From Escherichia coli (GTDB lineage Bacteria > Pseudomonadota > Gammaproteobacteria > Enterobacterales > Enterobacteriaceae), in NCBI RefSeq assembly GCF_003018255.1, contig NZ_CP027440.1: a stretch of DNA of 64,000 bases. One strand, given 5' to 3'. Position numbers and translations under genes: made by a program. Below, piece after piece: positions 11,166-39,160 of this stretch; positions within the stretch are counted from its first letter, which is position 1; every line of letters begins with the position of its first letter. The notes beneath the pieces are model-generated. The model was given only the letters and a program-made list of their open reading frames with translations. It did no database searches and was not told the DNA's origin.

Positions 11166-12329
11166 ATGCTGAGACACAACGTTCCTGTGCGGCGGGATCT
11201 GGACCAGATCGCCGCTGACAACGGTTTCGACTTTCATATCATCGACAATGAAATCTATTGGGACGAGAGTCGAGCTTACCGTTTTACTCTGCGCCAGATT
11301 GAAGAGCAGATCGAAAAACCGACTGCGGAACTGCATCAGATGTGCCTTGAGGTGGTGGATCGCGCGGTTAAAGACGAAGAGATCCTGACGCAACTGGCGA
11401 TCCCGCCGTTGTACTGGGATGTGATCGCCGAAAGCTGGCGCGCACGCGATCCTTCGTTGTATGGCCGTATGGATTTTGCCTGGTGTGGTAATGCACCGGT
11501 TAAGTTGCTGGAGTACAACGCCGATACGCCAACTTCATTGTACGAGTCGGCTTATTTCCAGTGGTTGTGGCTGGAAGATGCCCGGCGCAGCGGCGTTATT
11601 CCGCGCGATGCCGATCAGTACAATGCCATTCAGGAGCGCCTGATTTCACGCTTTAGCGAGCTTTACAGTCGGGAACCGTTTTATTTTTGCTGCTGTCAGG
11701 ACACCGACGAAGACAGGAGTACCGTGCTGTACTTGCAGGACTGCGCCGAGCAGGCAGGGCAGGAGTCGCGGTTTATCTACATTGAAGATCTCGGTTTGGG
11801 CGTCGGCGGTGTGCTGACCGATCTTGATGATAATGTCATCCAGCGTGCATTTAAGCTGTATCCGCTGGAGTGGATGATGCGTGACGATAACGGTCCGCTG
11901 CTGCGCAAGCGTCGCGAGCAATGGGTGGAGCCGTTATGGAAAAGTATCTTGAGTAATAAAGGGCTAATGCCGCTGCTTTGGCGCTTCTTCCCTGGTCATC
12001 CTAACCTTCTTGCATCCTGGTTCGATGGTGAAAAACCGCAGATTGCCGCTGGCGAAAGCTATGTGCGTAAACCGATTTACTCGCGCGAAGGCGGAAACGT
12101 CACCATTTTCGACGGTCAGAATAACGTTGTTGACCACGCTGATGGTGATTACGCCGATGAACCGATGATCTACCAGGCGTTTCAACCTCTGCCGCGATTT
12201 GGCGATAGCTACACACTCATCGGTAGCTGGATTGTCGATGATGAAGCGTGCGGAATGGGGATCCGTGAAGATAACACGTTGATCACCAAAGACACCTCAC
12301 GTTTCGTTCCGCATTACATTGCTGGATAA
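11166..12329 (+). CDS. yjfC: Glutathionylspermidine synthase-like ATP-grasp protein YjfC
   Basis: ORF track 11151..12329; start at ATG 11166 (MLRHNVPVRRDLDQIAADNGF) gives 387 aa. Confidence 0.85.
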   Translation: MLRHNVPVRRDLDQIAADNGFDFHIIDNEIYWDESRAYRFTLRQIEEQIEKPTAELHQMCLEVVDRAVKDEEILTQLAIPPLYWDVIAESWRARDPSLYGRMDFAWCGNAPVKLLEYNADTPTSLYESAYFQWLWLEDARRSGVIPRDADQYNAIQERLISRFSELYSREPFYFCCCQDTDEDRSTVLYLQDCAEQAGQESRFIYIEDLGLGVGGVLTDLDDNVIQRAFKLYPLEWMMRDDNGPLLRKRREQWVEPLWKSILSNKGLMPLLWRFFPGHPNLLASWFDGEKPQIAAGESYVRKPIYSREGGNVTIFDGQNNVVDHADGDYADEPMIYQAFQPLPRFGDSYTLIGSWIVDDEACGMGIREDNTLITKDTSRFVPHYIAG

Positions 12330-21829: not shown

Positions 21830-22515
21830 TGCAAAAGCTAAAACAGCAGGTATTTGAAGCCAATATGGATCTGCCGCGCTACGGGCTGGTGACCTTTACC
21901 TGGGGCAACGTCAGCGCCATTGACCGCGAACGCGGGCTGGTGGTGATCAAGCCCAGCGGCGTTGCCTACGAAACCATGAAAGCAGACGATATGGTGGTGG
22001 TTGATATGAGCGGCAAGGTGGTGGAAGGGGAGTATCGTCCGTCTTCCGACACCGCGACGCATCTTGAACTCTACCGCCGTTATCCGTCGCTTGGCGGCAT
22101 TGTCCATACCCATTCCACGCATGCCACCGCATGGGCGCAGGCGGGGCTGGCTATCCCGGCATTAGGCACCACGCACGCTGACTACTTCTTTGGCGATATC
22201 CCCTGTACGCGCGGGTTAAGCGAAGAAGAAGTGCAGGGGGAATACGAGCTAAACACTGGCAAAGTGATTATCGAAACGCTGGGTGACGCCGAGCCGCTGC
22301 ATACGCCGGGAATTGTGGTGTATCAGCACGGGCCATTCGCCTGGGGGAAAGATGCTCACGATGCGGTGCATAACGCGGTGGTGATGGAAGAAGTGGCGAA
22401 AATGGCGTGGATTGCCCGCGGCATTAACCCGCAACTGAATCACATCGACAGCTATCTCATGAATAAACACTTCATGCGTAAGCACGGTCCCAACGCCTAT
22501 TACGGGCAGAAGTAA
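21829..22515 (+). CDS. ulaF: L-ribulose-5-phosphate 4-epimerase
   Basis: ORF track 21781..22515; start at ATG 21829 ([23 protein letters not shown]), 228 aa class II aldolase fold; start overlaps ulaE stop. Confidence 0.92.
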
Positions 22516-22522
22516 AACACGC

Positions 22523-22577
22523 GCTGCGGAGATTTCCTTCTTCGGGAGATAACTGGTCTAAGTCCGCAGCCGTTTTT
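22523..22577 (+). terminator. Putative terminator after ulaF
   Basis: Inverted repeat gctgcgga...tccgcagc followed by cgttttt. Confidence 0.45.
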
Positions 22578-22578
22578 C

Positions 22579-22603
22579 AAAAAAAGCCCCCTGAAAAGGG
22601 GGC
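22579..22603 (-). terminator. Putative terminator of yjfY
   Basis: gccccct/agggggc hairpin with a T-run on the minus strand (A7 on plus strand). Confidence 0.55.
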
Positions 22604-22643
22604 AAAGCAAACTATGGCAATGTTTCGTTGGTTATACCTGGTG

Positions 22644-22919
22644 CTAGCGATAAATATCCGCGCTGGCGTGCATATTGCCGTTACTCCCCGGTTCCCGCAT
22701 CAGAATCACGTGGTAGTACGTTGCGCCCTGCGCATCTGTCTCTTCATTTAATGCCTGACGCGCTTCGCTTTCAGTGGCGAAATTATGATTGATATAAATC
22801 ACGCCTAAGCTTTGCACATCGTCCATATTTCTGGCCTGGTGGTTATTAATTTCAATGGCTGCCCATGTATTTGCACTTAGCAAAAGCACAGCCAGAAGGG
22901 CTAAAACACGGCTGAACAT
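22644..22919 (-). CDS. yjfY: DUF1471 (YhcN-family) secreted protein YjfY
   Basis: 91 aa with signal peptide MFSRVLALLAVLLLSANTWA. Confidence 0.85.
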   Translation of the reverse strand: MFSRVLALLAVLLLSANTWAAIEINNHQARNMDDVQSLGVIYINHNFATESEARQALNEETDAQGATYYHVILMREPGSNGNMHASADIYR

Positions 22920-23228
22920 AGATACCTCCTCGACGGCTGACTTTGTGTGCTCTCCTCTTGTGGTGATCTTCTGATTTAATTTTAATCAATGATAAAGAAG
23001 TGGATGGTGACCATTTCTGATGCAGTTGTTCAAAAAAACACCATGATGAAGTGTGATGAACTTCAAATCAGCGTGTTAGTACGATTTGGTGAAGGATGAG
23101 ATTTATTTGTCGGCTGGCCTTGAGTTTAGCGGGGTATGTCAGTACTATAACGCGTCATTTTTCAGCCGACCTTTAACACGTTCCTTGCCTCCCCGGGATT
23201 CGGCTGACCCAGACAGGAGGCTGAATAA

Positions 23229-23642
<414 letters not shown>

Positions 23643-23648
23643 TTTCTG

Positions 23649-24195
<547 letters not shown>

Positions 24196-24224
24196 TCGGT
24201 CACGGTCCATTAATACGACTTTGA

Positions 24225-24686
<462 letters not shown>

Positions 24687-24710
24687 TTCGTTATTCAACG
24701 AGACGTAAAA

Positions 24711-24740
24711 ACGCCGACCAGTGGTCGGCGTTTTGCTTTT
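24711..24740 (+). terminator. Rho-independent terminator of the rpsF-priB-rpsR-rplI operon
   Basis: acgccgaccagtggtcggcgt hairpin followed by tttgctttt. Confidence 0.85.
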
Positions 24741-25046
24741 AAGTGATAAAAACCGCAGAAACAGACGTTCCCTCCATAAATCTCTTGCTATTCCTTTTAT
24801 AAAAAGTTCGCAGTACCCATACCTGGCCCCCAGCCTCGCCGCTGGTAGTTCGTGTCATGTTTTTTACGCGTAAAACACGACAAAAGCATCAATACAGCGA
24901 TCGTCTCACTTGTATGATAATAAAAACAATATGTTATATATGAATGTGCTGTTATTTTATTGTTTTTATATATAAAAAGATAAAATACCATCACTTTCGT
25001 AATCTTGAACGCTTTGCAGGTGCGTTCAATCCAATAAATGCTAATA

Positions 25047-25067
25047 TTATGGCTATCATAGCCATAA
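25047..25067. promoter_or_regulatory. Perfect 21-bp palindrome, candidate operator of the HTH/HipA-like module
   Basis: TTATGGCTAT-C-ATAGCCATAA (10-bp arms, 1-bp centre) ending 21 bp upstream of the HTH gene start codon. Confidence 0.45.
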
Positions 25068-25087
25068 AAAGATAAAATATTATCACT

Positions 25088-25579
25088 ATGGGTAAAAAAA
25101 CAGCACCGTTACTCCCTTATACGAATCAGATGCTTAGTGAATTTGGTGAGCGGCTGAAACTTGCTCGTTTACGACGCAGGCTTACCGCAAAGCAAGTTGC
25201 TGAACGTGCTGGGATGTCGCCAATAACATTGCGCTCTCTGGAGTCAGGAAGTGCAGGGGTCACGATAGGGGCATATTTGTCTGTGATGCAGGTTTTGGGC
25301 CTGGAAACGGATTTAAATAAGCTTGCAGCTGAAGACGACTTAGGGCGTCAGCTCCAGGATTCCCGTTTGATTAAAAAAAGAGGGCTTTCTCGTGCATCAA
25401 GTAAGAATGAAGAAGGTTCTCAGACAGCCTCATTGCAGATGAGGCACGAGAAAGAAGGTCATCTCACCACGGATTTAACAGCACTGGCAGAAGGCTCGAC
25501 GCCATCTATTACAGGAGAAACATCAACCTCTCTTGCAGCACTATTAAAACCGATAAAAAAACCGTTAAAAGGAAATTAA
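25088..25579 (+). CDS. XRE-family HTH protein, HipB-like putative antitoxin with long C-terminal extension
   Basis: 163 aa; HTH_XRE signature around [32 protein letters not shown]; Ser/Thr/Glu-rich low-complexity C-terminal ~75 aa; stop 25577-25579 is 2 bp before the kinase ATG. Confidence 0.75.
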
Positions 25580-25581
25580 TT

Positions 25582-26850
25582 ATGGCATTAATCGGAGTGT
25601 ATGCGGATTGGGAAGGCCTGGATGGTCCGGAGCGGATTGGTTATTTACACAGTCGCCGCACTCGGACGCGTGAGATATTTGAGTTTGAGTACGATAAAAA
25701 GGCGCTTGCAGATCCTTCACTTAATTTCATTCAGTTAGATCCTGAAATAATGTTGTATGAGGGAGCACACTACCCAATTCCTCCAAAGGATAAATTTGGT
25801 GCATTTAGTGATTCCTGCCCGGATCGTTGGGGGCGTATGCTAATGAAGCGTCGTTTTGAGAGGGATATTCGAGACGGGTTATGTGATAAAGACTCCCACC
25901 TTTATGAGTCTGATTATCTACTAGGTGTTCATGATCTTTATCGGGTTGGGGCCCTTCGATACAAACGTGAAGACGCTGGAGAGTTTCTTGATAATCGCAT
26001 TGATGTTGCAGCCCCACCATTTACCGAAATAGCGAGTCTGGAAAGGGCTAGCCGGGCAATTGAAGAAGATCCTGATAATAAAGAGCTAATGGGGCAAAAA
26101 TGGTTAAGAATGCTAATCGCTCCGGGGGGATCATTAGGGGGGGCACGTCCGAAAGCCAGTGTTGTTGATGAAGCTGGGCATCTCTACATCGCTAAATTTC
26201 CCAGTGTAAAAGATGAGTATGATGTTGGTGGATGGGAAATGGCCGTTAATGCACTTGCTGTTGGCTGTGGACTGAATGTTGCACCTGCTCAGGCGCATAA
26301 ATTTGCCAGCAATTACCATTGTTTTATGGTTCGTCGTTTTGACCGCACTAATGCGGGAAGGCGTCTGCATTTTGCTTCGGCTATGACACTAACCAGGCAT
26401 CAGGATGGTGAAGATGCCTCTACAGGTGTGAGTTATCTGGAATTAGCAGATGTTCTTATCAGGCATGGCGCGCAGACTAATACTGATCTTAAGGAACTCT
26501 GGTCCAGGATTGTTTTTAATATTCTTGTTTCTAATACCGATGATCATTTACGCAATCATGGATTTATCTTGATACCAGGAAAAGGTTGGCGGCTTTCTGA
26601 GGCATATGATTTGAATCCTGTGGTCAGGTCTGATGGTTTAAAACTCAATATTACGGAAAATGACAATGCACTTGATTTGGAATTAGCTAGAGAAGTTGCA
26701 GAGTATTTTCGACTTAGTTTGACGGAAGCTGATGACATTATTGCTAATTTTAGAGGGATTGTCAGTCAGTGGCGAATCATTGCCGAGCGTCTGAGATTAC
26801 CTGGTCGTGAGCAAGAGTTAATGGCAGAGGCATTCAGAGCGTCAATTTAG
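25582..26850 (+). CDS. HipA-family serine/threonine kinase (putative type II toxin)
   Basis: 422 aa; Gly-rich loop GGSLGGARPKAS, catalytic-loop motif NTDDHLRNHG and HipA_C-like C-terminus (DLNPVV...); aaggaa RBS upstream of ATG. Confidence 0.8.
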   Translation: MALIGVYADWEGLDGPERIGYLHSRRTRTREIFEFEYDKKALADPSLNFIQLDPEIMLYEGAHYPIPPKDKFGAFSDSCPDRWGRMLMKRRFERDIRDGLCDKDSHLYESDYLLGVHDLYRVGALRYKREDAGEFLDNRIDVAAPPFTEIASLERASRAIEEDPDNKELMGQKWLRMLIAPGGSLGGARPKASVVDEAGHLYIAKFPSVKDEYDVGGWEMAVNALAVGCGLNVAPAQAHKFASNYHCFMVRRFDRTNAGRRLHFASAMTLTRHQDGEDASTGVSYLELADVLIRHGAQTNTDLKELWSRIVFNILVSNTDDHLRNHGFILIPGKGWRLSEAYDLNPVVRSDGLKLNITENDNALDLELAREVAEYFRLSLTEADDIIANFRGIVSQWRIIAERLRLPGREQELMAEAFRASI

Positions 26851-26947
26851 AATAGTTATTTCGATATATTCGCTAAATCATAAATTTGCGAAGCAATGCC
26901 AGTAGATACTGAACGTTTTGGAAGAGACGTTTAATTTATGAGAAAAA

Positions 26948-26982
26948 TAGAAACGCTACAAAGCTAAATTATAGCGTTTCTA
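26948..26982. terminator. Bidirectional hairpin between the HipA-like gene and the convergent MFS gene
   Basis: tagaaacgct ... agcgtttcta inverted repeat (10-bp stem, ~15-nt loop) in an AT-rich context. Confidence 0.5.
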
Positions 26983-26992
26983 TGTAAAATAA

Positions 26993-28270
26993 TTAGCTTG
27001 TCGCTAACTGTACTTGTGGTTCTTCGTCTTTAACTTTGATAAGCATCCACAGCGCAATGGCGCCAATAATGTCAAAGAAAGCCAGGGCAATAAAGAACGG
27101 CGCGAAGCCAATAATGTGAACGAATGCCCCGATAAACAGGTTGAAAATCAACTGACCGCTCCATGCACAGGCTCCTGCCATACCCACAGCGGTAGCTACT
27201 TCGTCTTTTTTGAATAGGTCACCGCCCAGAGTTGCTGCAACAGTAGAAAGACATTGATGCGAGAATGCGCCAATGCTAATCAGTAATACGGCGATGTAGG
27301 GATTTTCGACAATACTCACCAGACCAATCGTCATCATAATGACGGCTGCAATAGTGAAGGTAATTCTTCGTGAGTTAATTAAACTCACGCCGCGATCGTG
27401 GAAGAACTTCGCGACAAAACCACTGGCTAAACAGCCGAGATCGCCCAGCAGGAAAGGTAGCCAGACGAACATGGCAATTTCTTTCAGGCTAAAATGCAGC
27501 GTTTCGACGAAGAAAATCGGTACCCAGAAGTTAATGGTTCCCCATGCCGGGTCAGCGAGAAAACGCGCGATGCCAATCCCCCAGAAATTACGTTGGCTGA
27601 GGATATGCTTGATTGACGTTTTTTCTTTCTTATCTGTTTTAAGATGCTGTTCTTGCCCAGACTCAATATAGTGGCGCTCTTCATCAGAAAGGCGTTTAGC
27701 ATCTTTTGGATCTTTATAACAAAAGAACCAAAATAAAGCCGCGAGTAAAGCAAGGCTACCTGAGACAATAAACGCAAATTGCCAGCTATGAAACATAATG
27801 CACCAGGCAATCAACGGTGGAGCAAGCATCGCGCCGAGTGAGGTGCCCATATTGAAAACACCTGTCGCCACGCCACGCTCTTTTGCCGGGAACCATGTTG
27901 ATGCGGTTTTTACACCCGCAGGAATTGCCGATGCTTCGCTGAAACCCATCAGGGCGCGCATAAATGCCAGACCTGACCATGTTCCTGTCAAGGCATGCCC
28001 CATTGTCGCCAGGCCCCAGATTGCGGCACATATCGCAAAACTTAACTTCAGACCCACGGTATCAATAAAGAAGCCCATTATCGGTTGCCCCAATGTATAG
28101 GCCAACTGGAATGCACTGACAATCCATGAATATTGTTCTTTGGTTATTCCGGTTGTCTCCATAATCGTTGGAGCCGCAATACCTAACGCCGTTCTGTCCA
28201 GATAATTGATTACAGTGATAAAGCATACGAGGGCAATCATATGCCATCGATAATTCTTTATTTTATTCAT
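26993..28270 (-). CDS. MFS transporter, anion:cation symporter family (ExuT/hexuronate-transporter-like)
   Basis: 425 aa, 12-TM-like hydrophobicity; MNKIKNYRWHMIALVCF...WFPAKERG...KEIAMFVWLP resembles ExuT/DgoT-type sugar-acid transporters as recalled from memory. Confidence 0.8.
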   Translation of the reverse strand: MNKIKNYRWHMIALVCFITVINYLDRTALGIAAPTIMETTGITKEQYSWIVSAFQLAYTLGQPIMGFFIDTVGLKLSFAICAAIWGLATMGHALTGTWSGLAFMRALMGFSEASAIPAGVKTASTWFPAKERGVATGVFNMGTSLGAMLAPPLIAWCIMFHSWQFAFIVSGSLALLAALFWFFCYKDPKDAKRLSDEERHYIESGQEQHLKTDKKEKTSIKHILSQRNFWGIGIARFLADPAWGTINFWVPIFFVETLHFSLKEIAMFVWLPFLLGDLGCLASGFVAKFFHDRGVSLINSRRITFTIAAVIMMTIGLVSIVENPYIAVLLISIGAFSHQCLSTVAATLGGDLFKKDEVATAVGMAGACAWSGQLIFNLFIGAFVHIIGFAPFFIALAFFDIIGAIALWMLIKVKDEEPQVQLATS

Positions 28271-28362
28271 TTTTAAACCTTTTAATTATATTAATAAACC
28301 CTGGTTGTTGGTATTTCCATGTAATAGGCAATAAAAATCAGGTACAGAGGAAATATTGAAAA

Positions 28363-30435
28363 TTATTGTGTGTAAATGTCTCCCTTTAAAAAATCTGGCC
28401 AGTTTTTTTCAAAGTAAATACCGTTAATACACGGTTGCATACGTAAAGACTTTACTTCGGTAATAAAAGAACCTTGCGAATATTGAATTGTTAATTTGTG
28501 ATTTTTGTCTTCAGCGAGTTCAGAGCGAAAACGCCATTCTTCTTTTGCGCCGCGACGAGTTTGTGGTAGGCATTTGCCTTGTGGATCAATAACCATACGC
28601 GCCCCACGGCTACCACCACCAGCATCAATATAATGCGTTAATTGTGTTAATACCGCGGCAGAAGTCAGCGCCATATGCCGCCACATAAACAGCTCGGCAA
28701 CTTCACCCACATGTTTGATTGCCAATCCATGCCGTTGGACAAATTCGTTCAATAGCAGGGCATCACGAGTGGCACGTCGGACTTTATCGGCATGGCAAAT
28801 AAATCCCGCATAGTCAGACATTCGTGCCTGAATTTTTTCTCTCACAACCGACAACGGCATCCCGGTCCCGTTATCGTGCGCCTGAGTAATGATCTCTCTT
28901 ATAGAAGCCAGTGCCGGAGCTACCAGCTGTGCTATATCTCCATCAATATTACGTTTTTGCGTGCAACCAATAAAACGTGCCAGACGAACAGCAAAAACCT
29001 GCCCGGCATTCAATGCCGCACCACCAGGGCGAGTGACGCCGTGTGTGCCAGCAACTTCCCCCACGGCGAAACAGCCGGGCAGGGAGGTTTGTCCCCAGAT
29101 ATCCACTTCAATGCCGCCATTCATATGCTGATTATTCATGGCAAACTGCAAAGGCTGTGTGGTGAGATCGTAACCGTGCATCTTATACAGCGAGATAGAC
29201 AGCGGATTCATTCGTTGCAGCCGTTCGATGGGCGATGGTGCCAGAGCGTCGTTATTTTCCAGATACGCGCGAACGTCGTCGTCCAGTCGATCTAATGAGA
29301 AGGGCAGGTCACCCGGCACCGCTTCAGGATTGCGATTGAAATCCATAAATACCTGACGCCCTGATTGCTGCTCTTGCGCTACAGCCATATCTAACAAGCT
29401 GGAGCCAAACTCCATTACCCGAGTGGCGTGGAACGGCCACTGATAGCCTTTACGAAAAATGTTTGAAGCCAGCTCCTGGGTGGTGCGATAGTAATCCGCG
29501 AGGAAGTTATACTCGTTGCCCCCGGCATCCACGGAATAGATATGTGGGATCACCTGCACATAGGTGCCGGACAAATTCCACGGAAACGTGCTGCGCGGTG
29601 TGCCTATACCAAACTGGCTTTCAGTCAAATTGGTTAGCGTCAGACCTTCTTCCAGCGCCAGCCCCAGCGAGCCGAAACATTTGTGTGGGTACACACTGTC
29701 GCGATAAAGCTCGCCAGGCCCTCCTGTTGCCAGTACCACATTGGGCGCAATCACAATTGCCAGCCCCCATGGGTTATGGACGCGATGACCGGTCGCGAGG
29801 ATAGCCCCCGCCACGCGGTCTTCGCCGTTTTCGTCACGCTGATGCAGCAGTTTAATCACTGTTGCACTGGTCAACATTGGGATAGCAAGACGCTGTACTT
29901 CTTCCAGCAGCACTTTCACCATTAACCTTGAGGTACGTGGCCCACACGAGGTTGCACGCCCGGCTTCGTCATGGTCGGTTTGATAACGAAGAATCGCACC
30001 ATAGCGATCTTCCGGTAATTCCAGACCAAGATATTGCAACCCGCCAAGAGTGTGCAGAGAACCTACCGCTTCGACATAAGCAGTGTCGTGATCCATCGCC
30101 CCACCACTCGCCAGTGCCTCTGCCAGTTTGGTGAAGTTGTCGCCGTTGCCCGCGGTAGCGGCGGTAAACAGCGTCTGTTTATCGGAACCGGAGCAGGCCG
30201 ATGTTCCCATGTATAACCCGGCGGTGGCGATTAACACATTTTGCTGGCGGCGTTTAAGTTCCACAGCTGCACGCAGCCCGGCTGCACCACTGCCGACTAC
30301 CAGGGCATCTGTTTGCCAAAGTGGGTAATCAACACCGTCTACCGTGACAACCCATGCGGGTTCTGCCTGTGCAAAACCCTTTGGGAAAGTAACGTGCGTC
30401 AGCGCATCAAGGATGGTGTCATCAAGCTGACTCAT
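28363..30435 (-). CDS. FAD-dependent oxidoreductase (succinate dehydrogenase/fumarate reductase flavoprotein-like superfamily)
   Basis: 690 aa; N-terminal Rossmann dinucleotide motif VVGSGAAGLRAAVEL; start ATG overlaps the stop of the upstream CoA-transferase gene (ATGA). Confidence 0.7.
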   Translation of the reverse strand: MSQLDDTILDALTHVTFPKGFAQAEPAWVVTVDGVDYPLWQTDALVVGSGAAGLRAAVELKRRQQNVLIATAGLYMGTSACSGSDKQTLFTAATAGNGDNFTKLAEALASGGAMDHDTAYVEAVGSLHTLGGLQYLGLELPEDRYGAILRYQTDHDEAGRATSCGPRTSRLMVKVLLEEVQRLAIPMLTSATVIKLLHQRDENGEDRVAGAILATGHRVHNPWGLAIVIAPNVVLATGGPGELYRDSVYPHKCFGSLGLALEEGLTLTNLTESQFGIGTPRSTFPWNLSGTYVQVIPHIYSVDAGGNEYNFLADYYRTTQELASNIFRKGYQWPFHATRVMEFGSSLLDMAVAQEQQSGRQVFMDFNRNPEAVPGDLPFSLDRLDDDVRAYLENNDALAPSPIERLQRMNPLSISLYKMHGYDLTTQPLQFAMNNQHMNGGIEVDIWGQTSLPGCFAVGEVAGTHGVTRPGGAALNAGQVFAVRLARFIGCTQKRNIDGDIAQLVAPALASIREIITQAHDNGTGMPLSVVREKIQARMSDYAGFICHADKVRRATRDALLLNEFVQRHGLAIKHVGEVAELFMWRHMALTSAAVLTQLTHYIDAGGGSRGARMVIDPQGKCLPQTRRGAKEEWRFRSELAEDKNHKLTIQYSQGSFITEVKSLRMQPCINGIYFEKNWPDFLKGDIYTQ

Positions 30436-31973
30436 GCATCCTCCATCGGCGTAAACAGGCTACTTTCCATCAGGCGTGGGTGCTTGATAATTGGACGGAA
30501 AGCCATATACGGCAGAATGTCGCGCTCAATCTCCACACCCGGCGCGATTTCAATTAATTCAACGCCTTCTGCCGTTAACTGGAATACTGCGCGTTCAGTG
30601 ATATACAGCACTTCCTGACCACTTTGCTGTGCGTAGGCGGCGCTAAAAGTGATTTTTTCCACTTGGGTAACCAGTTTAGGGATTTGACCTGACTGGGCGA
30701 TATGCAGGCCATCAGGCGTTACATCAATCTTGCTGCCTTTGGCGTCAAACGTACCGCAGAACACCACTTTACGGGCGTTTTGCGCAATTTCGAGGAAGCC
30801 GCCGGGGCCAATGAGATTGCCATTGAGATGGGATACGTTGACGTTACCGTACCGATCCATCTCTCCCATGCCGAGGAAGGTGATATCGATACCGCCGCCA
30901 CTGTAGAATTCGAATTGATCGAGTGATGGAATAATGGCGTCGGCGTTACGGGCGCAGCCGAACAGAGCATCATCCAGCATCATGCCGTTATGTACGCCTT
31001 GCTCGACGCTCATCCATAAACTTTGATAAGGCACGCCTTCGCGCAGCGCAACCCCAGGAATACCGCCCGGAATACCAAAGCCAAAGTTGGTTGAAGCGCC
31101 TGCCACCAGTTCCCGTGCTGCCCGACGGGCAATCAGGCGACGCACCGGATGACTAACCAGTTCAATAGCGTCGTTAGAACTTAGACGGCGATGTTGACCG
31201 CTGATCGTCAGGTCGTAACCGCCAAGATAGGTTTGCGGTTGTTCGCGGTGTTCAACGATACCATCGACCAGAATCCCCGGTAGCTTGACCTTGCGAGGTT
31301 CAATGGCGCCAGCTTCCAGTACATCGCGCACCTGTACAAACACTTTGCCGCCACTGTTGTGTGCTGCCAGCGCCATCGAATAGCTATCCATATCAATCGC
31401 TTCTTCTTCGAGGCTAACGTTGCCACGCGGATCGGCATAGGTGCCGCGCAAAATCGCGTAGTCCACTTTGAAAGGGCGATAGCGGAGTTTGGTTTCACCG
31501 TCGATTTCAATCAGTTCTACCAGGTCGTCGGTCGTGCATTCATTCGACTTACCGCCACCATTGCGTGGATCAACAAACGATCCCAGCCCAACGTGGGTAA
31601 AAAGCCCCGGACGTCCGGCACCGATCTCCCGCAGCAGTGCCTGAATTACGCCACCAGGGAAACAGTAGGCTTCAATAGCATTGCTTTTCACCAGTTCCTG
31701 CATCTTGGGCGACCAGGTAAAATGTCCGGCAATAATGCGTTTGAGCATTTCGGCGTGAGCAAAACGGTTAGTGCCTTTGCTGTCGCGATCGCCAATACCC
31801 AGCGAGTGGATTAATGTCAGATCGCGCGGGTGTCCGGTTTGCAGGAAACGCGCTTCAATGGCGGCCATAATATGGTCAGCTTCCACCATACCGCCGCCGT
31901 TACCGCTAATGGCAATGGTTGCGCCGTCCTGAATTTGCGCCGCCAGTGTCTCGGCGGTTGATAACTTACGCAT
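30432..31973 (-). CDS. Family I CoA-transferase, fused alpha/beta subunits (YdiF-like acyl-CoA:acetate CoA-transferase)
   Basis: 513 aa; GSFVDPRNGGGK and YITERAVFQLTAEGVELIEIAPGVEIERDIL closely parallel YdiF motifs as recalled from memory. Confidence 0.75.
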   Translation of the reverse strand: MRKLSTAETLAAQIQDGATIAISGNGGGMVEADHIMAAIEARFLQTGHPRDLTLIHSLGIGDRDSKGTNRFAHAEMLKRIIAGHFTWSPKMQELVKSNAIEAYCFPGGVIQALLREIGAGRPGLFTHVGLGSFVDPRNGGGKSNECTTDDLVELIEIDGETKLRYRPFKVDYAILRGTYADPRGNVSLEEEAIDMDSYSMALAAHNSGGKVFVQVRDVLEAGAIEPRKVKLPGILVDGIVEHREQPQTYLGGYDLTISGQHRRLSSNDAIELVSHPVRRLIARRAARELVAGASTNFGFGIPGGIPGVALREGVPYQSLWMSVEQGVHNGMMLDDALFGCARNADAIIPSLDQFEFYSGGGIDITFLGMGEMDRYGNVNVSHLNGNLIGPGGFLEIAQNARKVVFCGTFDAKGSKIDVTPDGLHIAQSGQIPKLVTQVEKITFSAAYAQQSGQEVLYITERAVFQLTAEGVELIEIAPGVEIERDILPYMAFRPIIKHPRLMESSLFTPMEDA

Positions 31974-31982
31974 ACAATTTCC

Positions 31983-32759
31983 TTATTGATTGTGGAAGCT
32001 CACGCCGGCTTTTTCGGCAAATGCGTGCGTCGCCTGCTGGCAATCCTGAGTGGCGGACATTAATCCAGCCAGTAACTGGTGGGAGTAATCGGCGTGTTTA
32101 TTTTCCAGCGCCAGAATCAGTTGCTTAATATGTGCCAGTGCCACCGGACCACATTTTTCCAGCTGCGCTAACTGGTTCGCCATCCAGCTTTCCACCTGTT
32201 CTTTTTCTACCACTTCATCAATTAAATTCGCCACCTGGGCTTCCTGCGCCGTCAGGCGTTTACCCAGCATCAGCATCTGGCGACCGACCACCGGGCCAAC
32301 CTGATTAAGCACGCGTTCAATGCCCATCCAGCCAGGCACCATGCCGAGCATCACTTCCGGGTTAGAGAATTTCGCGCCGGGGCGAGCGATACGAATATCG
32401 CAGCACAAGGCAAGTTCAATACCGCCACCGATGGTATGACCGTTGAGATTCGCAACGGTTAATTGGGGTAAGTTGCGCAGGCGATTAAAAACCTCGTTAC
32501 CGCGTTTAATCCATTTTCTGCCCATATCTAATGGCGAATAGGCCGACCACGATTTAATATCGCCGCCCGCACAAAAGAATTTATCGCCGGTTGCCGTTAA
32601 TTCGACTAATCGTAATGTGGTGTCGTTTTCAATTTCATTTAAATAATGGTCGAGAGATTCGATCATTTCTTCATTAATAGCATGACATTTATCTTCACGG
32701 TTCAATGTCAGGCGGCAAGAAGCCGCCGCTCTGCTGAACAGAACGGGTTGGTCACTCAT
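31983..32759 (-). CDS. Enoyl-CoA hydratase/isomerase (crotonase-fold) protein
   Basis: 258 aa; crotonase-like oxyanion-hole region (FFCAGGDIK ... GHTIGGGIELALCCDIRIA). Confidence 0.75.
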   Translation of the reverse strand: MSDQPVLFSRAAASCRLTLNREDKCHAINEEMIESLDHYLNEIENDTTLRLVELTATGDKFFCAGGDIKSWSAYSPLDMGRKWIKRGNEVFNRLRNLPQLTVANLNGHTIGGGIELALCCDIRIARPGAKFSNPEVMLGMVPGWMGIERVLNQVGPVVGRQMLMLGKRLTAQEAQVANLIDEVVEKEQVESWMANQLAQLEKCGPVALAHIKQLILALENKHADYSHQLLAGLMSATQDCQQATHAFAEKAGVSFHNQ

Positions 32760-32768
32760 GATTATTCC

Positions 32769-33611
32769 TTAGCAATAATGTGCGATGCGATCGACGCTAA
32801 TATCCAGCGTGCTGTTAATATCTTTCTGCCACCAGTACGGTGAGAATATTTCCAGTTCAATAGCGCCATTAAATCCGGCGTTTTCAACCAGCCGACGAAT
32901 TGACGGAATATTGATGACACCATCTCCCGGCATTCCACGGTCATTGACCAGATCGGTGGTCGGCACTAACCAGTCGGAAACATGAAACGCGAGGATGCGT
33001 TTTCCGGCACGCAGGATCTGACTGGCGAGATCCGGGTCCCACCAGACATGGTAGACATCTACCGCCACGCCGAGGCCAAATTCGCCATCGGGATCGAGTT
33101 CATCACACCAGTCCAGCGCCTGACGTAACGTGCACAGACAAGAACGATCGGCAGCAGTCATCGGGTGCAGTGGCTCCAGTGCAATTGGCACGCCGACCTC
33201 TTTCGAATGTGGCAGCAACTGGCGAATCCCTTGTTTCACCTGTTCCCGTGCTTCGTACAGATCTTTTGTTCCCATTGGCAGACCGCCAACCACCTGCATG
33301 TAACAGGCGGCATTTAGCACAGCGGCATCGTCCAGCGCCCGGCGGTTATCATCAATCGCCAGCTTGCGCTCCGCCAGCGTCGGTGCGGTGTAGTAGGTGC
33401 TACGGCACAAACCGGAAACGTTTATGTTACTGGCAGCAAGCTGGCGGGCGATTTGCTGGAGATCTTCACCCTGCAACTCCCTGCGCCAGGGGGCAATGGC
33501 GCCAATACCGCGTGCGGCGCAGGCATCAATAATGGCGGGTAGCGGCGTTTTATAGCCCAGTGTCGCGGTATTGATACTGAATAAATCCGGGCGTTGTAAC
33601 AGATCTCTCAT
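32769..33611 (-). CDS. Xylose-isomerase-like TIM-barrel protein (sugar phosphate isomerase/epimerase or dehydratase family)
   Basis: 280 aa; AP-endonuclease-2/xylose-isomerase-like TIM-barrel pattern, same fold family as UlaE/IolE; function inferred from family only. Confidence 0.6.
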   Translation of the reverse strand: MRDLLQRPDLFSINTATLGYKTPLPAIIDACAARGIGAIAPWRRELQGEDLQQIARQLAASNINVSGLCRSTYYTAPTLAERKLAIDDNRRALDDAAVLNAACYMQVVGGLPMGTKDLYEAREQVKQGIRQLLPHSKEVGVPIALEPLHPMTAADRSCLCTLRQALDWCDELDPDGEFGLGVAVDVYHVWWDPDLASQILRAGKRILAFHVSDWLVPTTDLVNDRGMPGDGVINIPSIRRLVENAGFNGAIELEIFSPYWWQKDINSTLDISVDRIAHYC

Positions 33612-33620
33612 GATTCAGCC

Positions 33621-34412
33621 TCAGAAGCGCGGCATACTTAAGCCGCCGTCGATGGCGACCGCCTGACCACAGGTGTAAATCAGTTTACCTTCCGCCATCG
33701 CGCGGACAGTGGAAGCAATATCAGCCGGATAACCCCAACGTCCCCACGGCACCAGACCTTTGGCAATCAGTTCGTCGTAATAGGCCGTTGCCGGAATAGT
33801 CATATCGGTTTTGATGAGACCAGGACGCACTTCATATACGCCAATTTGTTCATTACAAAGGCGAGCAGCAAATAGACGAGCAGCGGCAGAGACGGCAGTT
33901 TTGGCAATGGTATATTCGCCGCGATTCATCGCCAGCATGATGGCGTTGATGGAACTGACGAAAATAATCGAGCGGTGCGGCAGTTCTGCTTCCGGTTTCG
34001 GCTGTGCCAGTAAGCGCTTACTGAATGCCTGAGCGAGGAAGAACGGTGCGCGGGTGTTAATGGCAATATTTTGGTCGAAGCTGTCTGGTTCGAGGTCGAG
34101 AAGATCACCGCGTTTTTTCACTGAAATGCCTGCGTTGTTGAGCAGGCAGTCCAGACGTCCCCACTGGTTTTGCGCTGCGTCGAGCATCTCTTCATGCAGG
34201 GAGAGATCGCCCACATCAGCAGGGAAGCAAATCACTTCCACGCCTTCCGCCAGACATTCTTGTTGTGTGGCATGTAATTTTTCTACGCTATCCGCATCCG
34301 GACGATCATTAATCAGCAGATTAAATCCGCCACGCGCAAGCTCCAGCGCACAGCCCTTTCCAATACCACGAGCGGCTCCGGTAATCACGGCAACAGGAAG
34401 AGTGGATTTCAT
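33621..34412 (-). CDS. Short-chain dehydrogenase/reductase (SDR)
   Basis: 263 aa; cofactor motif TGAARGIGKG and catalytic YxxxK (YTIAKTAV); first gene of the minus-strand operon. Confidence 0.8.
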   Translation of the reverse strand: MKSTLPVAVITGAARGIGKGCALELARGGFNLLINDRPDADSVEKLHATQQECLAEGVEVICFPADVGDLSLHEEMLDAAQNQWGRLDCLLNNAGISVKKRGDLLDLEPDSFDQNIAINTRAPFFLAQAFSKRLLAQPKPEAELPHRSIIFVSSINAIMLAMNRGEYTIAKTAVSAAARLFAARLCNEQIGVYEVRPGLIKTDMTIPATAYYDELIAKGLVPWGRWGYPADIASTVRAMAEGKLIYTCGQAVAIDGGLSMPRF

Positions 34413-34480
34413 ACAATAGCTCTCTTTTTTTGAATTTTGTTTCCTTAGTGATGATTAGCTTGCGACTGGAGGGTAAAAAG

Positions 34481-34502
34481 ATCAACCATCTAGTTGGTTG
34501 AT
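34481..34502. promoter_or_regulatory. Near-perfect 22-bp palindrome in the divergent SDR/TetR intergenic region (candidate TetR operator)
   Basis: ATCAACCATCTAGTTGGTTGAT, 20 of 22 positions self-complementary, 8-bp perfect arms. Confidence 0.4.
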
Positions 34503-34624
34503 ATGCGATGGCGATCACAGGACATTTGATAACCTGATGAAAGTACAAGTTTTTGCCCTTTTTTCTGAAGCTGAAATCAAATCAGGTTATGATAGTCACC
34601 ACGAAGAGGTCGTGGGGAAGCGTT

Positions 34625-35272
34625 ATGTATCTTGATACCAGCAACGTACAGAGCCTGAAAGAAAAGCTGCTGTTATGCGCGGTTAATGAATTTGCCGAAT
34701 ATGGTTACGAAGGGGCCAGAGTCGATAATATCGTCAAGGCCGCGGGGTGCAGTAAACAGACGGTTTATCACCACTTTGGTAATAAAGAAAATTTATTTAT
34801 CGAAGTACTGGAATATACCTGGAACGATATTCGACAAAAAGAAAAGGCCCTTGATTTCTCAGATCTTCCGCCACAGAAAGCCATTGAGAAAATAATCGAT
34901 TTTACATGGGATTATTATATTTCTAATCCCTGGTTTTTAAAAATTGTGCATAGTGAAAATCAAAGTAAGGGTGTGCATTATGCAAAGTCACAGCGTCTTT
35001 TAGAAATTAACCATGCGCACTTGCAGTTAATGGAATCCTTATTGGATGAAGGGAAGAAAAACAATATTTTTAAGCCAGATATCGACCCATTGCAGGTGAA
35101 TATTAATATTGCTGCGCTTGGGGGATATTATTTGATCAACCAGCATACGCTTGGTCTGGTTTATCACATCAGTATGGTTTCACCCCAGGCACTGGAAGCC
35201 AGACGTAAGGTCATCAAAGAGACAATCCTTAGCTGGCTTTTGGTTGACCCTTCATCTACCGCGCGCGAATAA
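34625..35272 (+). CDS. TetR/AcrR-family transcriptional regulator
   Basis: ORF track 34553..35272 begins at a TTG; ATG at 34625 with ggggaag RBS is more plausible (215 aa); TetR_N HTH ([27 protein letters not shown]). Confidence 0.75.
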
Positions 35273-35894
35273 AACTGCCATCCGGCTGGCGGGTAAACAG
35301 GACCTGTTGATTATTCCCCGTATCAATGGTTAAGCCCGTCACCACGCCGCTGGCGTTCTGGCGGATTTTCACCATCTGCCCGTTTTGCAAATTACTCAGT
35401 GGCTTATCCGCGCCTTCTACCTGCGCCATGGCATAGACATCGGTAGCGGGCAGTCCGTGGTCGCGGAACAGCTGCGCCATCGTTTTACCGGGTTCGACAC
35501 GATAGGAGCGCCATTGATTATCAATTCCGCTATCTGGCTGGAATGGTTGCGTATGGGTGGTTTGCGGCTGCTCTTCTGGCTGGCCTTCCTGTATTGGTTC
35601 TGGAGCGACCGGAGCCACCTGATCAGGATCATTTTGTGGCGTGACTAATTGCGCCCGCAGCTGTTCTTCTGTCGGTGGTTGTGATTGCGACTGAATATCT
35701 AACTGCGCTTCACGCGTCACCACCGGCGCGTTGGGCGTATCATCAGATGGAAGCAGAAATCCGACTACCAATACAATGGCGGCAATAATGATCCCCCGAC
35801 GATGCATCGGCGGCAGCGGGTCCATGAAGCGAAAATTGTCCGGCGCGTGCCAGACTTTCTCCAGGGTTGGTTTTAGTTCAAAGCGCCCGGGCAT
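35256..35894 (-). CDS. ytfB: Cell-division-associated OapA/LysM-domain protein YtfB
   Basis: ORF track 35256..35930; start at [21 protein letters not shown], 212 aa; Pro/Gln-rich linker and C-terminal OapA-like domain. Confidence 0.85.
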
Positions 35895-36111
35895 GGTTTC
35901 CTCCTGCTCCGCGTCTTGTTCCTCAATCATAGCCTATGAATAAGCTAACGCTATGATGTCCGTGGTAAACCCGCCTTTATTATATTCATACGGGATATTG
36001 CTATTGTTTCTTTTTCCCCGGGATTTGTCATCATTCCCGCGACAAAGTTTTACCCAAAGAAGTGTGGCTGATATGCTGCCCGCTACTTTATACCCTAAGA
36101 AAGGAAATACG

Positions 36112-36732
36112 ATGACCACCCCAACTTTTGACACCATCGAAGCGCAAGCAAGCTACGGCATTGGTTTGCAGGTAGGGCAACAACTGAGTGAATCTGGCCT
36201 GGAAGGGCTGCTGCCAGAAGCACTGGTTGCAGGCATTGCCGATGCGCTGGAAGGCAAACATCCGGCTGTTCCGGTTGATGTGGTGCACCGCGCGCTGCGT
36301 GAAATCCACGAACGCGCCGATGCCGTTCGTCGTCAGCGTTTCCAGGCGATGGCTGCTGAAGGTGTGAAATACCTGGAAGAAAACGCCAAAAAAGAAGGTG
36401 TAAATAGCACCGAATCTGGCCTGCAATTCCGCGTGATCAACCAGGGCGAAGGCGCAATTCCGGCACGTACCGACCGCGTTCGTGTTCATTACACCGGAAA
36501 ACTGATCGACGGCACCGTGTTTGACAGCTCCGTTGCTCGCGGCGAGCCAGCTGAATTCCCGGTTAACGGCGTGATCCCTGGCTGGATTGAAGCACTGACT
36601 CTGATGCCGGTAGGTTCTAAATGGGAACTGACTATCCCGCAGGAACTGGCATATGGCGAGCGTGGCGCAGGCGCGTCCATCCCTCCGTTCAGCACCCTGG
36701 TGTTTGAAGTCGAACTGCTGGAAATCCTCTAA
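36112..36732 (+). CDS. fklB: FKBP-type peptidyl-prolyl cis-trans isomerase
   Basis: ORF track 35953..36732; start at ATG 36112 ([20 protein letters not shown]) after aaggaaa RBS, 206 aa. Confidence 0.93.
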
Positions 36733-37040
36733 GCAGCGCATTCTGTTCCCCTCGAACCAGAGGGGAGCAGACATTCAGCAATAAACCCTTCAGTTTGCCA
36801 AACGGCGCTATTTTGTGTTGCAAAGACCCCGTAAGCGTGTATTTTTGTGAGCTGTTTCGCGTTATCACCGTGATATGACACTCACTTTAAACATAAAATT
36901 AACATTAGATCTAAATCTTAGTATTCATACCGCGTATTGTTACCTAATATCGATGAGTCCCGATACAGATTCGTCGTATCATAGACTGACTAAAGGCCGT
37001 AGAGCCTGAACAACACAGACAGGTACAGGAAGAAAAAAAC

Positions 37041-38453
37041 ATGGTAGATCAGGTAAAAGTCGTTGCCGATGATCAGGCTCCGGCTGAACAGTCGCTACGG
37101 CGCAATCTCACAAACCGACATATTCAGCTTATTGCCATTGGCGGTGCCATTGGTACAGGGTTGTTTATGGGGTCCGGCAAAACGATTAGCCTTGCCGGGC
37201 CGTCGATCATTTTCGTTTATATGATCATCGGTTTTATGCTCTTTTTCGTGATGCGGGCAATGGGGGAATTGCTGCTTTCGAATCTGGAATACAAATCTTT
37301 TAGTGACTTCGCTTCCGATTTACTCGGGCCGTGGGCAGGATATTTCACCGGCTGGACCTACTGGTTCTGCTGGGTTGTAACCGGTATGGCAGACGTGGTG
37401 GCGATCACGGCTTATGCTCAGTTCTGGTTCCCCGATCTCTCCGACTGGGTCGCCTCGCTGGCGGTGATAGTGCTGCTGCTGACGCTTAACCTCGCCACCG
37501 TGAAAATGTTCGGTGAGATGGAGTTCTGGTTTGCGATGATCAAAATCGTCGCCATTGTGTCGCTGATAGTCGTCGGCCTGGTCATGGTGGCGATGCACTT
37601 TCAGTCACCGACCGGTGTGGAAGCGTCATTCGCGCATTTGTGGAATGATGGCGGCTGGTTCCCGAAAGGTTTAAGTGGCTTCTTTGCCGGATTCCAGATA
37701 GCGGTTTTCGCTTTCGTGGGGATTGAGCTGGTAGGTACAACAGCTGCGGAAACCAAAGATCCAGAGAAATCACTGCCACGCGCGATTAACTCCATTCCGA
37801 TCCGTATCATTATGTTCTACGTCTTCGCGCTGATTGTGATTATGTCCGTGACGCCGTGGAGTTCGGTAGTCCCGGAGAAAAGCCCGTTCGTTGAACTGTT
37901 TGTGTTGGTAGGTTTGCCTGCGGCTGCCAGCGTGATCAACTTTGTGGTGCTGACCTCTGCGGCGTCTTCCGCTAACAGCGGTGTCTTCTCTACCAGCCGT
38001 ATGCTGTTTGGTCTGGCCCAGGAAGGTGTGGCACCGAAAGCGTTCGCTAAACTCTCTAAGCGCGCAGTACCCGCGAAAGGGCTGACCTTCTCTTGTATCT
38101 GTCTGCTCGGCGGCGTGGTGATGTTGTATGTGAATCCCAGCGTGATTGGCGCGTTCACGATGATTACAACCGTTTCCGCGATTCTGTTTATGTTTGTCTG
38201 GACGATTATCCTTTGCTCGTACCTGGTGTATCGCAAACAGCGTCCTCATCTGCATGAGAAGTCGATCTACAAGATGCCACTCGGCAAGCTGATGTGCTGG
38301 GTATGTATGGCGTTCTTTGTGTTTGTTCTGGTGTTGTTGACACTGGAAGATGACACCCGCCAGGCGCTGCTGGTTACCCCGCTGTGGTTTATCGCGCTGG
38401 GGCTGGGCTGGCTGTTTATTGGTAAGAAGCGGGCTGCTGAACTGCGGAAATAA
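37041..38453 (+). CDS. cycA: D-serine/D-alanine/glycine:H+ symporter (APC family)
   Basis: 470 aa amino-acid permease, MVDQVKVVADDQAPAEQSLRRNLTNRHIQLIAIGGAIGTGLF. Confidence 0.95.
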   Translation: MVDQVKVVADDQAPAEQSLRRNLTNRHIQLIAIGGAIGTGLFMGSGKTISLAGPSIIFVYMIIGFMLFFVMRAMGELLLSNLEYKSFSDFASDLLGPWAGYFTGWTYWFCWVVTGMADVVAITAYAQFWFPDLSDWVASLAVIVLLLTLNLATVKMFGEMEFWFAMIKIVAIVSLIVVGLVMVAMHFQSPTGVEASFAHLWNDGGWFPKGLSGFFAGFQIAVFAFVGIELVGTTAAETKDPEKSLPRAINSIPIRIIMFYVFALIVIMSVTPWSSVVPEKSPFVELFVLVGLPAAASVINFVVLTSAASSANSGVFSTSRMLFGLAQEGVAPKAFAKLSKRAVPAKGLTFSCICLLGGVVMLYVNPSVIGAFTMITTVSAILFMFVWTIILCSYLVYRKQRPHLHEKSIYKMPLGKLMCWVCMAFFVFVLVLLTLEDDTRQALLVTPLWFIALGLGWLFIGKKRAAELRK

Positions 38454-38497: not shown

Positions 38498-39160
38498 TCA
38501 CTCACCCGCCAGCGCGCGCGGGAATAGTACATTGTTTTCCAGACTGATGTGCTCCATCAGGTCATCAATCAGTTCATTAATGCCGTTATACATCGCTTTC
38601 CAGGTGGTGCAGGCTTCCGGCGGCGGTGTGACGTTATTGGTGGTGTGTTTGATCACTTCCAGCAGTTCGCCCGCTTCATCGTGCTCGCTTTCCATTACGC
38701 TGATTGGCCCCATTGCCTGGCTGCCCATGCCTTGTTTAATCATCGGGAAGAGAATTTGCTCTTCTTTCATCATGTGGCTGGAAAGCTCTTCATGCAGCAT
38801 AGTCAGGTATTTTGTCAGCCCTTTTGGCACACTTGGTTTGTCGGCGTGAACGCGCTCGACTTTAGTCGCTTGCAGGATCAGCTCCGGCAGTTGCTCGCGG
38901 TGGCGATCGTGGTAGCGCACGATGATATGGTCGATGATTTCTGCCAGCGGGGCGCTACGCCAGTCTTTCTCAATCGGTTGTTCAGCAAGCTTTGCCAGTT
39001 CGGCTTCAATGACGTCAACATCCAGTTCTTTACGTGCCGCCGCGCGCGCCAGCGTCTGCTTACCGCCACAGCAGTAATCCATATCATATTTACGAAACAG
39101 AGCCGAAGCGCGAGGAATAGAGAGCGCCAGTTCACCTAAAGGTTGGTCGCGATAAGCCAT
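38498..39160 (-). CDS. ytfE: Iron-sulfur cluster repair di-iron protein YtfE (RIC)
   Basis: 220 aa [33 protein letters not shown], hemerythrin-like domain. Confidence 0.93.

Follow-up and report, generated by a model that had tools for sequence, protein, structure and literature searches.

The pseudogene ytfA of Escherichia coli K-12 is the truncated ortholog of a TetR-family regulator gene that is present in full length in the window analysed here (the whole stretch of 64,000 nucleotides of E. coli DNA), where it stands divergent from a six-gene operon and tail-to-tail with ytfB. Comparison of the window with K-12, with other E. coli genomes and with related genera makes it very probable, taken as a whole, that the ancestral arrangement was rplI-(insertion slot)-transporter-enzymes-SDR-TetR-ytfB-fklB-cycA, that a haplotype with yjfZ in the slot lost the operon in two deletions, that the overlap of the regulator gene with ytfB is neutral packing, and that the regulator is a local repressor. 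The core of this picture is already known, ytfA being annotated as a truncated TetR-family pseudogene and treated in the literature as a variably present TetR regulator. The additions made here are incremental: the loss is resolved into two deletions, an SDR relic and a microhomology are described, the exact overlap is shown to be conserved across genera, and a candidate operator is proposed.

Results and discussion

The regulator gene, ytfB and their overlap

The regulator gene occupies positions 34625-35272 on the plus strand and encodes a TetR/AcrR-family protein of 215 aa, the intact counterpart of K-12 ytfA, as deduced from its open reading frame and from the RefSeq CDS of a near-identical strain. 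The program-made open reading frame begins at a TTG at 34553; the ATG at 34625, which gives the length of 215 aa, is preferred as the start, in line with RefSeq for a 99.9%-identical strain and with the way in which the orthologs begin (MYLDTS...). On the minus strand, ytfB (35256-35894, with the RefSeq start at 35894) encodes an OapA/LysM-like protein of 212 aa named 'cell division protein YtfB' in RefSeq, and the Pfam domains OapA_N and LysM_OapA are on record for its Salmonella enterica ortholog. The stop codons, a TAA at 35270-35272 for the regulator and a TAG on the complement of 35256-35258 for ytfB, delimit a tail-to-tail overlap of 17 bp that is coding on both strands (35256-35272), so that on this point the original prediction agrees with the sequence and with RefSeq. 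The same 17 bp are annotated in three independent RefSeq records, namely strain 2017.09.02CC, a K-12 MG1655 assembly and the K-12 reference NC_000913.3 (ytfA 4427694-4428095, ytfB 4428079-4428717). Since the overlap is conserved across several genera and has been annotated independently, it is due neither to chance nor to an artefact of assembly or annotation, as had been envisaged. It is real and kept across genera, yet ordinary.

Overlap length was established by tracing both stop codons in 13 loci. It amounts to 17 bp in the window, K-12, three other E. coli records, E. whittamii, E. albertii, a divergent Escherichia lineage and Klebsiella spallanzanii, and the gene calls of the Salmonella enterica and Citrobacter sp. 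contigs (TetR 10001-10648, ytfB from 10632) give the same 17 bp, the Salmonella loci having been retrieved by exact-protein look-up. A divergent E. coli allele (allele 2), ~81-89% identical across this 1.8-kb region and encoding a regulator of 212 aa, carries 8 extra bp, which set its TetR TAA immediately next to the ytfB TGA (0 bp apart). In Entomohabitans the two genes are separated by a gap of 15 bp, without overlap.

The two proteins differ in how this stretch is conserved. YtfB ends in FIRAR* in 12 of the 13 traced loci (FIRAQ* in Entomohabitans), and the regulator residues encoded by the overlap vary (STARE, STAHE, STARG, SLIGRE, ASIWRE), more distant TetR-family orthologs ending directly after SWLL. 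The TAA of the regulator gene is built from the complement of the ytfB Phe-Ile codons TTT ATT. The FIRAR codons of ytfB would thus be the constrained part, and the TetR frame would read on until the complement of TTT ATT provides a TAA. Given a TetR tail that differs from taxon to taxon, and alleles in which the two genes merely touch or stand apart, the overlap is most plausibly a neutral consequence of close packing, with the TetR tail probably a passenger.

The 3' end of ytfB

The statement of the original prediction that no terminator lies between the convergent genes holds trivially, there being no intergenic space. A consensus scan of both strands also detected nothing resembling a terminator near the junction, with a total of 3 sites in the region vs 1.8 +/- 1.5 in shuffles. 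An imperfect hairpin of 44 nt (35196-35239, minus strand) is found inside the 3' coding region of the TetR gene and begins 17 nt past the ytfB stop on the ytfB transcript. It is flanked on its 3' side by UUCC on the ytfB strand and by UUUUGGUU on the TetR strand, there upstream of the TetR stop. A canonical intrinsic terminator serving the convergent pair was rejected, none being present near the junction and the hairpin having no U tract on the ytfB strand. The conservation of this hairpin raises the possibility that the stretch may also be constrained as a ytfB 3' UTR, in which case the overlap would perhaps not be purely neutral.

The 91-nt segment 35170-35260, which contains the hairpin, folds at -30.2 kcal/mol (z -2.0) on the minus strand and at -23.5 kcal/mol (z -1.0) on the plus strand. 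The window (z -2.0), Salmonella (z -2.2) and allele 2 (z -2.5) all give better-than-shuffled folds of this segment on the ytfB strand; the TetR strand folds more poorly than the ytfB strand in the window and Salmonella, and both strands are equal in allele 2. The hairpin is kept in 9 sequences. No Rfam family matched positions 34300-36100 at E <= 1, neither ytfB nor ytfA is mentioned in the SMRT-Cappable-seq supplements on transcript 3' ends, and the Term-seq literature on convergent genes yielded nothing specific to these genes.

These features could be taken to mean that the overlap and the retained 3' end of the TetR gene are functional for ytfB, the hairpin acting as a terminator or as a 3'-end stabiliser, and convergent transcription from the TetR promoter modulating ytfB and thereby explaining why at least the last ~91 bp of the TetR gene are retained in every E. 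coli. We consider this unlikely. The better-than-shuffled folding on the ytfB strand extends over E. coli, allele 2 and Salmonella, several G-U pairs create the strand asymmetry in the window and Salmonella, and one pair covaries at synonymous third positions; however, allele 2 folds equally well on both strands and the covarying pair is a single one among 9 related sequences. No canonical ytfB terminator was found elsewhere by the consensus scan, which would leave room for such a role, but the hairpin is devoid of a U tract where ytfB would need it, and its location within conserved coding sequence means that conservation is expected anyway. The hairpin also stays joined to ytfB in spite of the IS609 insertion at 35165, just outside it, but with one deletion event and one IS insertion only, the retention of the stretch is no test. 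Lastly, targeting of K-12 ytfA by CRISPRi changed the expression of dapE, called a cell-division gene by the authors of this 2025 preprint. A fuller version, in which the last ~75-90 bp of the TetR CDS would double as the ytfB 3' UTR, the hairpin would set or protect the mRNA 3' end and, in strains that have the operon, TetR transcripts induced by the effector would extend antisense into ytfB and tune it, appears rather improbable. If true, it would couple a catabolic signal to the expression of ytfB, a cell-division and adhesion gene, and would explain why every E. coli keeps the TetR 3' stretch after deletion or IS insertion. Neutral packing is retained here as the preferred reading of the overlap.

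ytfA of K-12 as a remnant of the regulator gene

The suggestion that K-12 ytfA might be a remnant of this TetR-family gene is confirmed by the alignment. Homology of K-12 to the window covers 22001-24739, through rplI and its terminator, and restarts at 34870, at about codon 82 of the TetR gene. From there, the block 34870-37000 shows 98% DNA identity. The part of the regulator kept in K-12 as ytfA (34870-35272, plus strand, by megablast and blastn) corresponds to codons ~83-215, thus to the ligand-binding domain only, and these 3' 133 codons encode a protein segment 98% identical over residues 83-215. ytfA (b4205) is a pseudogene in NC_000913.3 and bears the PGAP label 'TetR/AcrR ... missing N-terminus', and protein fragments derived from the remnant carry PF17938 only. 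The remnant has lost its HTH domain together with the native start codon, the promoter and the conserved palindrome proposed below as a candidate operator; it is found at the orthologous position, with ytfB, fklB and cycA as flanks and with the 17-bp overlap. Colclough et al. 2019 (PMC6790063) had already described ytfA as a TetR-family regulator gene, present in only some E. coli and in every E. albertii and E. fergusonii strain that they studied; the supplements of that study gave no match for ytfA.

That ytfA would still be alive in K-12, as a functional protein reduced to the ligand-binding domain or as a regulatory transcript, is in our opinion highly improbable. Its remaining 133 codons contain no stop and no frameshift, but an open frame over ~400 bp at ~3% divergence is expected by chance. 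The yjfZ-ytfA spacer holds an RpoD/H-NS binding site and a predicted promoter directed towards ytfA (PMC3946193), but the remnant has none of the DNA-binding, initiation and promoter elements or the candidate operator listed above, and it is a pseudogene in reference and PGAP records alike. The expression of a few genes was altered by CRISPRi of ytfA in the preprint cited above, but these effects are explicable by interference with the overlapping ytfB. Moreover, in ~80% of the genomes with the deletion haplotype (by subtraction) the remnant has been cut again at 35165, with IS609 in the one locus examined. The status of ytfA as a decayed ortholog of the regulator gene is therefore maintained.

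Two deletions and an SDR relic in K-12

In K-12, the rplI-ytfA interval measures 1,082 bp and contains yjfZ, its last ~100 bp being a relic of the SDR gene of the operon. This decayed relic of 102 bp (1588-1689 in the NC_000913.3 locus L004) corresponds to window positions 34222-34323 on the minus strand. By blastn it shows 79-85% identity to the Escherichia loci (E 1e-20 to 1e-29) and a weaker match to Entomohabitans (68%, E 1.6e-4), and no match to K. spallanzanii. Read in the SDR frame it gives NLLINEYTDTDSVE*LHTAQQECTV*GVEVIFS vs NLLINDRPDADSVEKLHATQQECLAEGVEVICF in the SDR, with 2 in-frame stops. Adjacent to it, 546 bp of the window (34324-34869, by blastn) are missing from K-12, comprising the 5' end of the SDR gene, the divergent promoter region with its palindrome, and TetR codons 1-82 with the HTH, and an 8-bp direct repeat, TCCGCCAC, is found at both ends of this deletion.

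An intermediate arrangement is present in some E. coli, in which the order is rplI-yjfZ-MFS-FAD-CoAT-ECH-isomerase-SDR-TetR-ytfB with an intact TetR gene. Compared with one such genome (locus L005), K-12 is without 3621-10950 (7,330 bp, from the upstream region of yjfZ into the SDR gene) and without 11053-11598 (546 bp, from the 5' end of the SDR gene to TetR codon 82). An ancestor with yjfZ in the slot accordingly lost the operon by two deletions of ~7.3 kb and 546 bp, the latter falling between the two TCCGCCAC repeats, and these left the 102-bp SDR relic and a promoterless, HTH-less TetR tail, which is ytfA. One simple deletion of the window cassette in K-12 was considered and rejected, as yjfZ replaces the HTH/HipA genes of the window and the presence of the 102-bp relic points to two deletions.

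The ytfA remnant is far less diverged than the SDR relic, with 94% identity over its first 107 nt and ~98% over 34870-37000, and K-12-type joints differ among themselves by up to ~4%. This gap requires an extra assumption, either an old deletion followed by recombinational homogenisation or a divergent donor allele, and the former is probably the simplest account. The deletion haplotype would be old and its ytfB-side flank would have been repeatedly homogenised by recombination with intact alleles, a process that the 102-bp relic, as an island between two joints, would escape. Among the matches listed, the truncation point is identical in K-12, MC1061, O157 and O111, which suggests a single origin, with one old deletion spread by recombination.

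An ancestral operon lost in the K-12 lineage

The operon is found at the same site, from rplI to ytfB and then fklB and cycA, in E. whittamii, E. albertii, the divergent Escherichia lineage, K. spallanzanii, Entomohabitans teleogrylli, Salmonella enterica and Citrobacter sp. Being syntenic between rplI and ytfB in all outgroups examined, it is ancestral in Escherichia and its relatives, and the relics together with this outgroup synteny establish its loss in the K-12 lineage. What had been put forward as a speculation, namely that K-12 lost the cassette by deletion rather than other strains gaining it, has thus found support in the relics of two genes in K-12, the direct repeat at one joint, the intermediate haplotype and the outgroup synteny.

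The location first assigned to the boundary has to be abandoned. The overlap at 35256-35272 had been taken as the right junction of the cassette; the breakpoint is at 34870, inside the TetR CDS at about codon 82, and the presence/absence boundary is thus ~400 bp to the left of the overlap, the stretch of the overlap itself being matched in 5,416 of 5,426 E. coli genomes. At the other end, blastn and alignment with K-12 place the limit of the variable region at 24739/24740, directly after the rplI terminator hairpin. In the window, the slot that follows rplI holds an HTH antitoxin-like gene and a HipA-family kinase gene (25088-26850, plus strand, from ORFs, NCBIfam and RefSeq names), in the place held by yjfZ in K-12; elsewhere it holds an EamA gene (Salmonella, Citrobacter) or is empty (E. 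whittamii, some E. coli). The HTH/HipA genes have a GC content of 42-44% vs ~51-55% in the flanks and constitute the only AT-rich insert, the operon enzyme genes having a genome-like 50-56%.

The converse polarity, with the operon as a horizontally acquired island bounded on its right by the TetR/ytfB junction and K-12 as the ancestral empty site, is scarcely credible and, for the operon as a whole, already refuted by the relics and the outgroup synteny: the presence/absence polymorphism in E. coli, the differing cargo of the slot, the swap of the transporter module between MFS and TRAP types and the low GC of the HTH/HipA segment are consistent with it, but truncated relics of two operon-side genes are unexpected at an empty site, the TetR 3' end beside ytfB is near-universal in E. 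coli as counted above, the position and the 17-bp overlap are the same in Salmonella, Citrobacter, K. spallanzanii, E. albertii and E. whittamii, the enzyme genes are genome-like in GC, RefSeq annotates neither an integrase nor a tRNA gene in the region and no flanking repeat at the junction, and the operon, far from being absent from related species at this site, is there in all outgroups examined. Ancestral presence followed by loss is the reading adopted in what follows.

Distribution among complete E. coli genomes

The survey covered 5,426 complete E. coli genomes, with counts based on megablast coverage thresholds, which miss the ~81%-identity allele when the query is short. An intact TetR gene with the start of the SDR gene (at least 80% of 34300-36100) was counted in 3,144 genomes and the K-12-type joint in 2,227 (~41%). 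yjfZ was present in 2,539 genomes, so that roughly 300 (2,539 minus 2,227) combine yjfZ with the operon. A TRAP transporter (DctPQM) replaces the MFS gene in 1,481 genomes, and the HTH/HipA pair occurs in 1,045. The scar is carried by K-12, O157:H7, O111 and ST1193, and the regulator is kept in BL21(DE3), UTI89 and ST131. In O157-type genomes, IS609 (tnpA and tnpB) is inserted at 35165 and splits the ytfA remnant. A break at this position occurs in ~1,780 genomes, IS609 having been seen there in one O157 genome, and the IS609 of O157-type genomes is a later insertion.

A putative local repressor of a CoA-dependent operon

The Pfam domain PF00440 (TetR_N) is on record for a protein 100% identical to the regulator, for its orthologs and for the Salmonella and Citrobacter genes, and residues ~10-70 match many TetR-family NCBIfam models as well as TetR regulators of the PDB. 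PF17938 (TetR_C_29) is on record for homologs, which provides the all-helical C-terminal effector-binding and dimerisation domain, and the regulator aligns to PDB 3npi over residues 14-207. No NCBIfam equivalog reached its cut-off, the best being FadR with 47 bits vs a cut-off of 200.

The six-gene operon is transcribed divergently from the TetR-family gene (26993-34412, minus strand) and was delineated from ORFs, family matches, RefSeq names, Pfam and cross-genus synteny. From the regulator outwards, all on the minus strand, it comprises genes for an SDR (33621-34412), a xylose-isomerase-like TIM barrel (32769-33611), an enoyl-CoA hydratase (31983-32759), a family-I CoA transferase (30432-31973), a FrdA/NadB-like FAD protein (28363-30435) and an ACS-family MFS transporter (26993-28270). 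NCBIfam names these genes at the family level only. In the PDB, the FAD protein had no match at E <= 1e-10 and the TIM-barrel protein matched only uncharacterised 'sugar isomerase' structures (3qc0, 3ju2, 7vpf); the literature on SMc04130 and 7VPF provided nothing relevant to the function of the operon.

The 212-bp region between the SDR and TetR genes contains an inverted repeat, ATCAACCATCT/AGTTGGTTGAT (34481-34502), here proposed as a candidate TetR operator. Its core, TCAACCATCT(A/G)GTTGGTTG, is invariant save for one central position in 9 alleles or taxa, and the mean column identity of the surrounding intergenic alignment is 45%. Judged from sequence features, the regulator is most likely a local repressor of the six-gene operon acting through this palindrome: it would sit on the candidate operator in the shared promoter region and be released by a metabolite of the pathway.

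Implications

The full-length regulator, with the six-gene CoA-dependent operon beside it, is found in ~58% of complete E. coli genomes, as well as in Salmonella and Citrobacter, and the pathway, although conserved, escaped study because it is missing from the K-12 model. K-12 ytfA still figures in lists of 'partially characterized regulators'. Because this remnant is devoid of a DNA-binding domain and shares bases with ytfB, phenotypes ascribed to ytfA call for reinterpretation, as they may reflect ytfB instead. These results leave present views of gene overlap and of TetR regulation unchanged; their value is mainly one of clarification, and the locus offers a clean textbook case for polarising gain versus loss by means of relics and outgroups.

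Comparison with known systems

With K-12 ytfA (b4205), the window gene shares its locus, its 3' 402 bp and its overlap with ytfB. It differs from it in being an intact gene of 215 aa with an HTH, a promoter region and a candidate operator, whereas K-12 is without codons 1-82 and everything upstream of them as far as the 102-bp SDR relic.

Local TetR/AcrR-family repressors encoded divergently from the operon that they control have TetR-tetA and AcrR-acrAB as their paradigm. As in these systems, the regulator of the window combines an N-terminal TetR_N HTH with a C-terminal effector domain, a divergent orientation and a conserved palindrome in the shared intergenic region. Unlike them, for which the targets are efflux pumps, it would control a catabolic operon that is CoA-dependent and includes an organic-anion transporter.

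Comparative surveys of overlapping genes in bacteria trace convergent overlapping pairs to the loss of a stop codon, after which the reading frame continues as far as the next one. The TetR-family gene and ytfB resemble such pairs in their short 3'-end overlap, in the single unconserved tail and in the relatives with a gap or with abutting stops, which document the transition. They differ from them by an unusual stability, the same 17 bp being found from Escherichia to Salmonella, Citrobacter and one Klebsiella species, likely because the TetR stop is built from the conserved Phe-Ile codons of ytfB.

The ytfA remnant and its neighbourhood

The K-12 pseudogene ytfA (1695-2096 of L004, the K-12 reference locus) retains the 3' part of the TetR gene of the window; this remnant lacks the HTH domain and overlaps ytfB. 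In O157-type genomes the remnant carries IS609, composed of tnpA and tnpB/InsQ (4310-5957 of the O157-type locus L002), inserted at a site corresponding to position 35165 of the window, 91 bp from the ytfB stop codon, and a break at this same position is found in approximately 1,780 genomes. A preprint of 2025 reported that CRISPRi directed at ytfA altered the expression of dapE and bssS, and treated ytfA as a regulator. An effect acting via ytfB would be a simpler reading, because ytfA is devoid of the HTH domain and shares its last 17 bp with ytfB.

Three of the compared E. coli loci (L006, L007 and L008) carry a second haplotype across TetR-ytfB, with about 81-89% identity to the window over a 1.8-kb region. 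Its TetR and YtfB proteins are farther from those of the window than are those of E. albertii, which suggests that this haplotype was imported from an unsampled lineage. In one record, its ytfB is named only “LysM-like peptidoglycan-binding domain-containing protein”.

In the SDR-TetR intergenic region, the palindrome proposed as the TetR operator is closely followed by a second conserved block (34513-34530), formed by TGATCAC then TT(G/A/T)ATAAC and common to all nine aligned taxa. This block might act in the promoter or provide a second half-site for an operator.

Exchange of the transporter module

The transporter module of the operon is exchanged between genomes (26877-28594 in the window versus 7160-10295 in the compared locus L003). 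It consists of one ACS-family MFS gene in the window and is represented instead by a TRAP DctPQM system in 1,481 genomes; the FAD-protein gene has its 3' end replaced in the same swap. Among outgroup Escherichia the two types are also both represented, E. whittamii having the MFS gene and the locus L012 the TRAP system.

Variable slots flanking the locus and consequences for yjfZ detection

The interval between cycA (37041-38453) and ytfE (38498-39160) is a further small variable slot near the locus: the window has no extra genes there, and some genomes harbor additional hypothetical genes (20279-21876 in L003 and 16281-18964 in L008). In the slot following rplI (24740-26876), the window carries, shortly past the rplI terminator and in place of yjfZ, an HTH antitoxin-like gene and a HipA-family kinase gene (25088-26850), a putative type II toxin-antitoxin pair with a GC content of 42-44% that is retrieved in 1,045 of the 5,426 complete E. 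coli genomes. In other genomes the slot is occupied by yjfZ or an EamA gene, or is empty. The yjfZ gene, located at 629-1423 of the K-12 locus and missing from the window, was put forward as an E. coli/Shigella “conserved signature” to be targeted by qPCR in water monitoring (PMC11057252). Megablast retrieved it in only 2,539 of these 5,426 genomes, and a yjfZ-based assay would therefore fail on about half of them, including the strain of the window.
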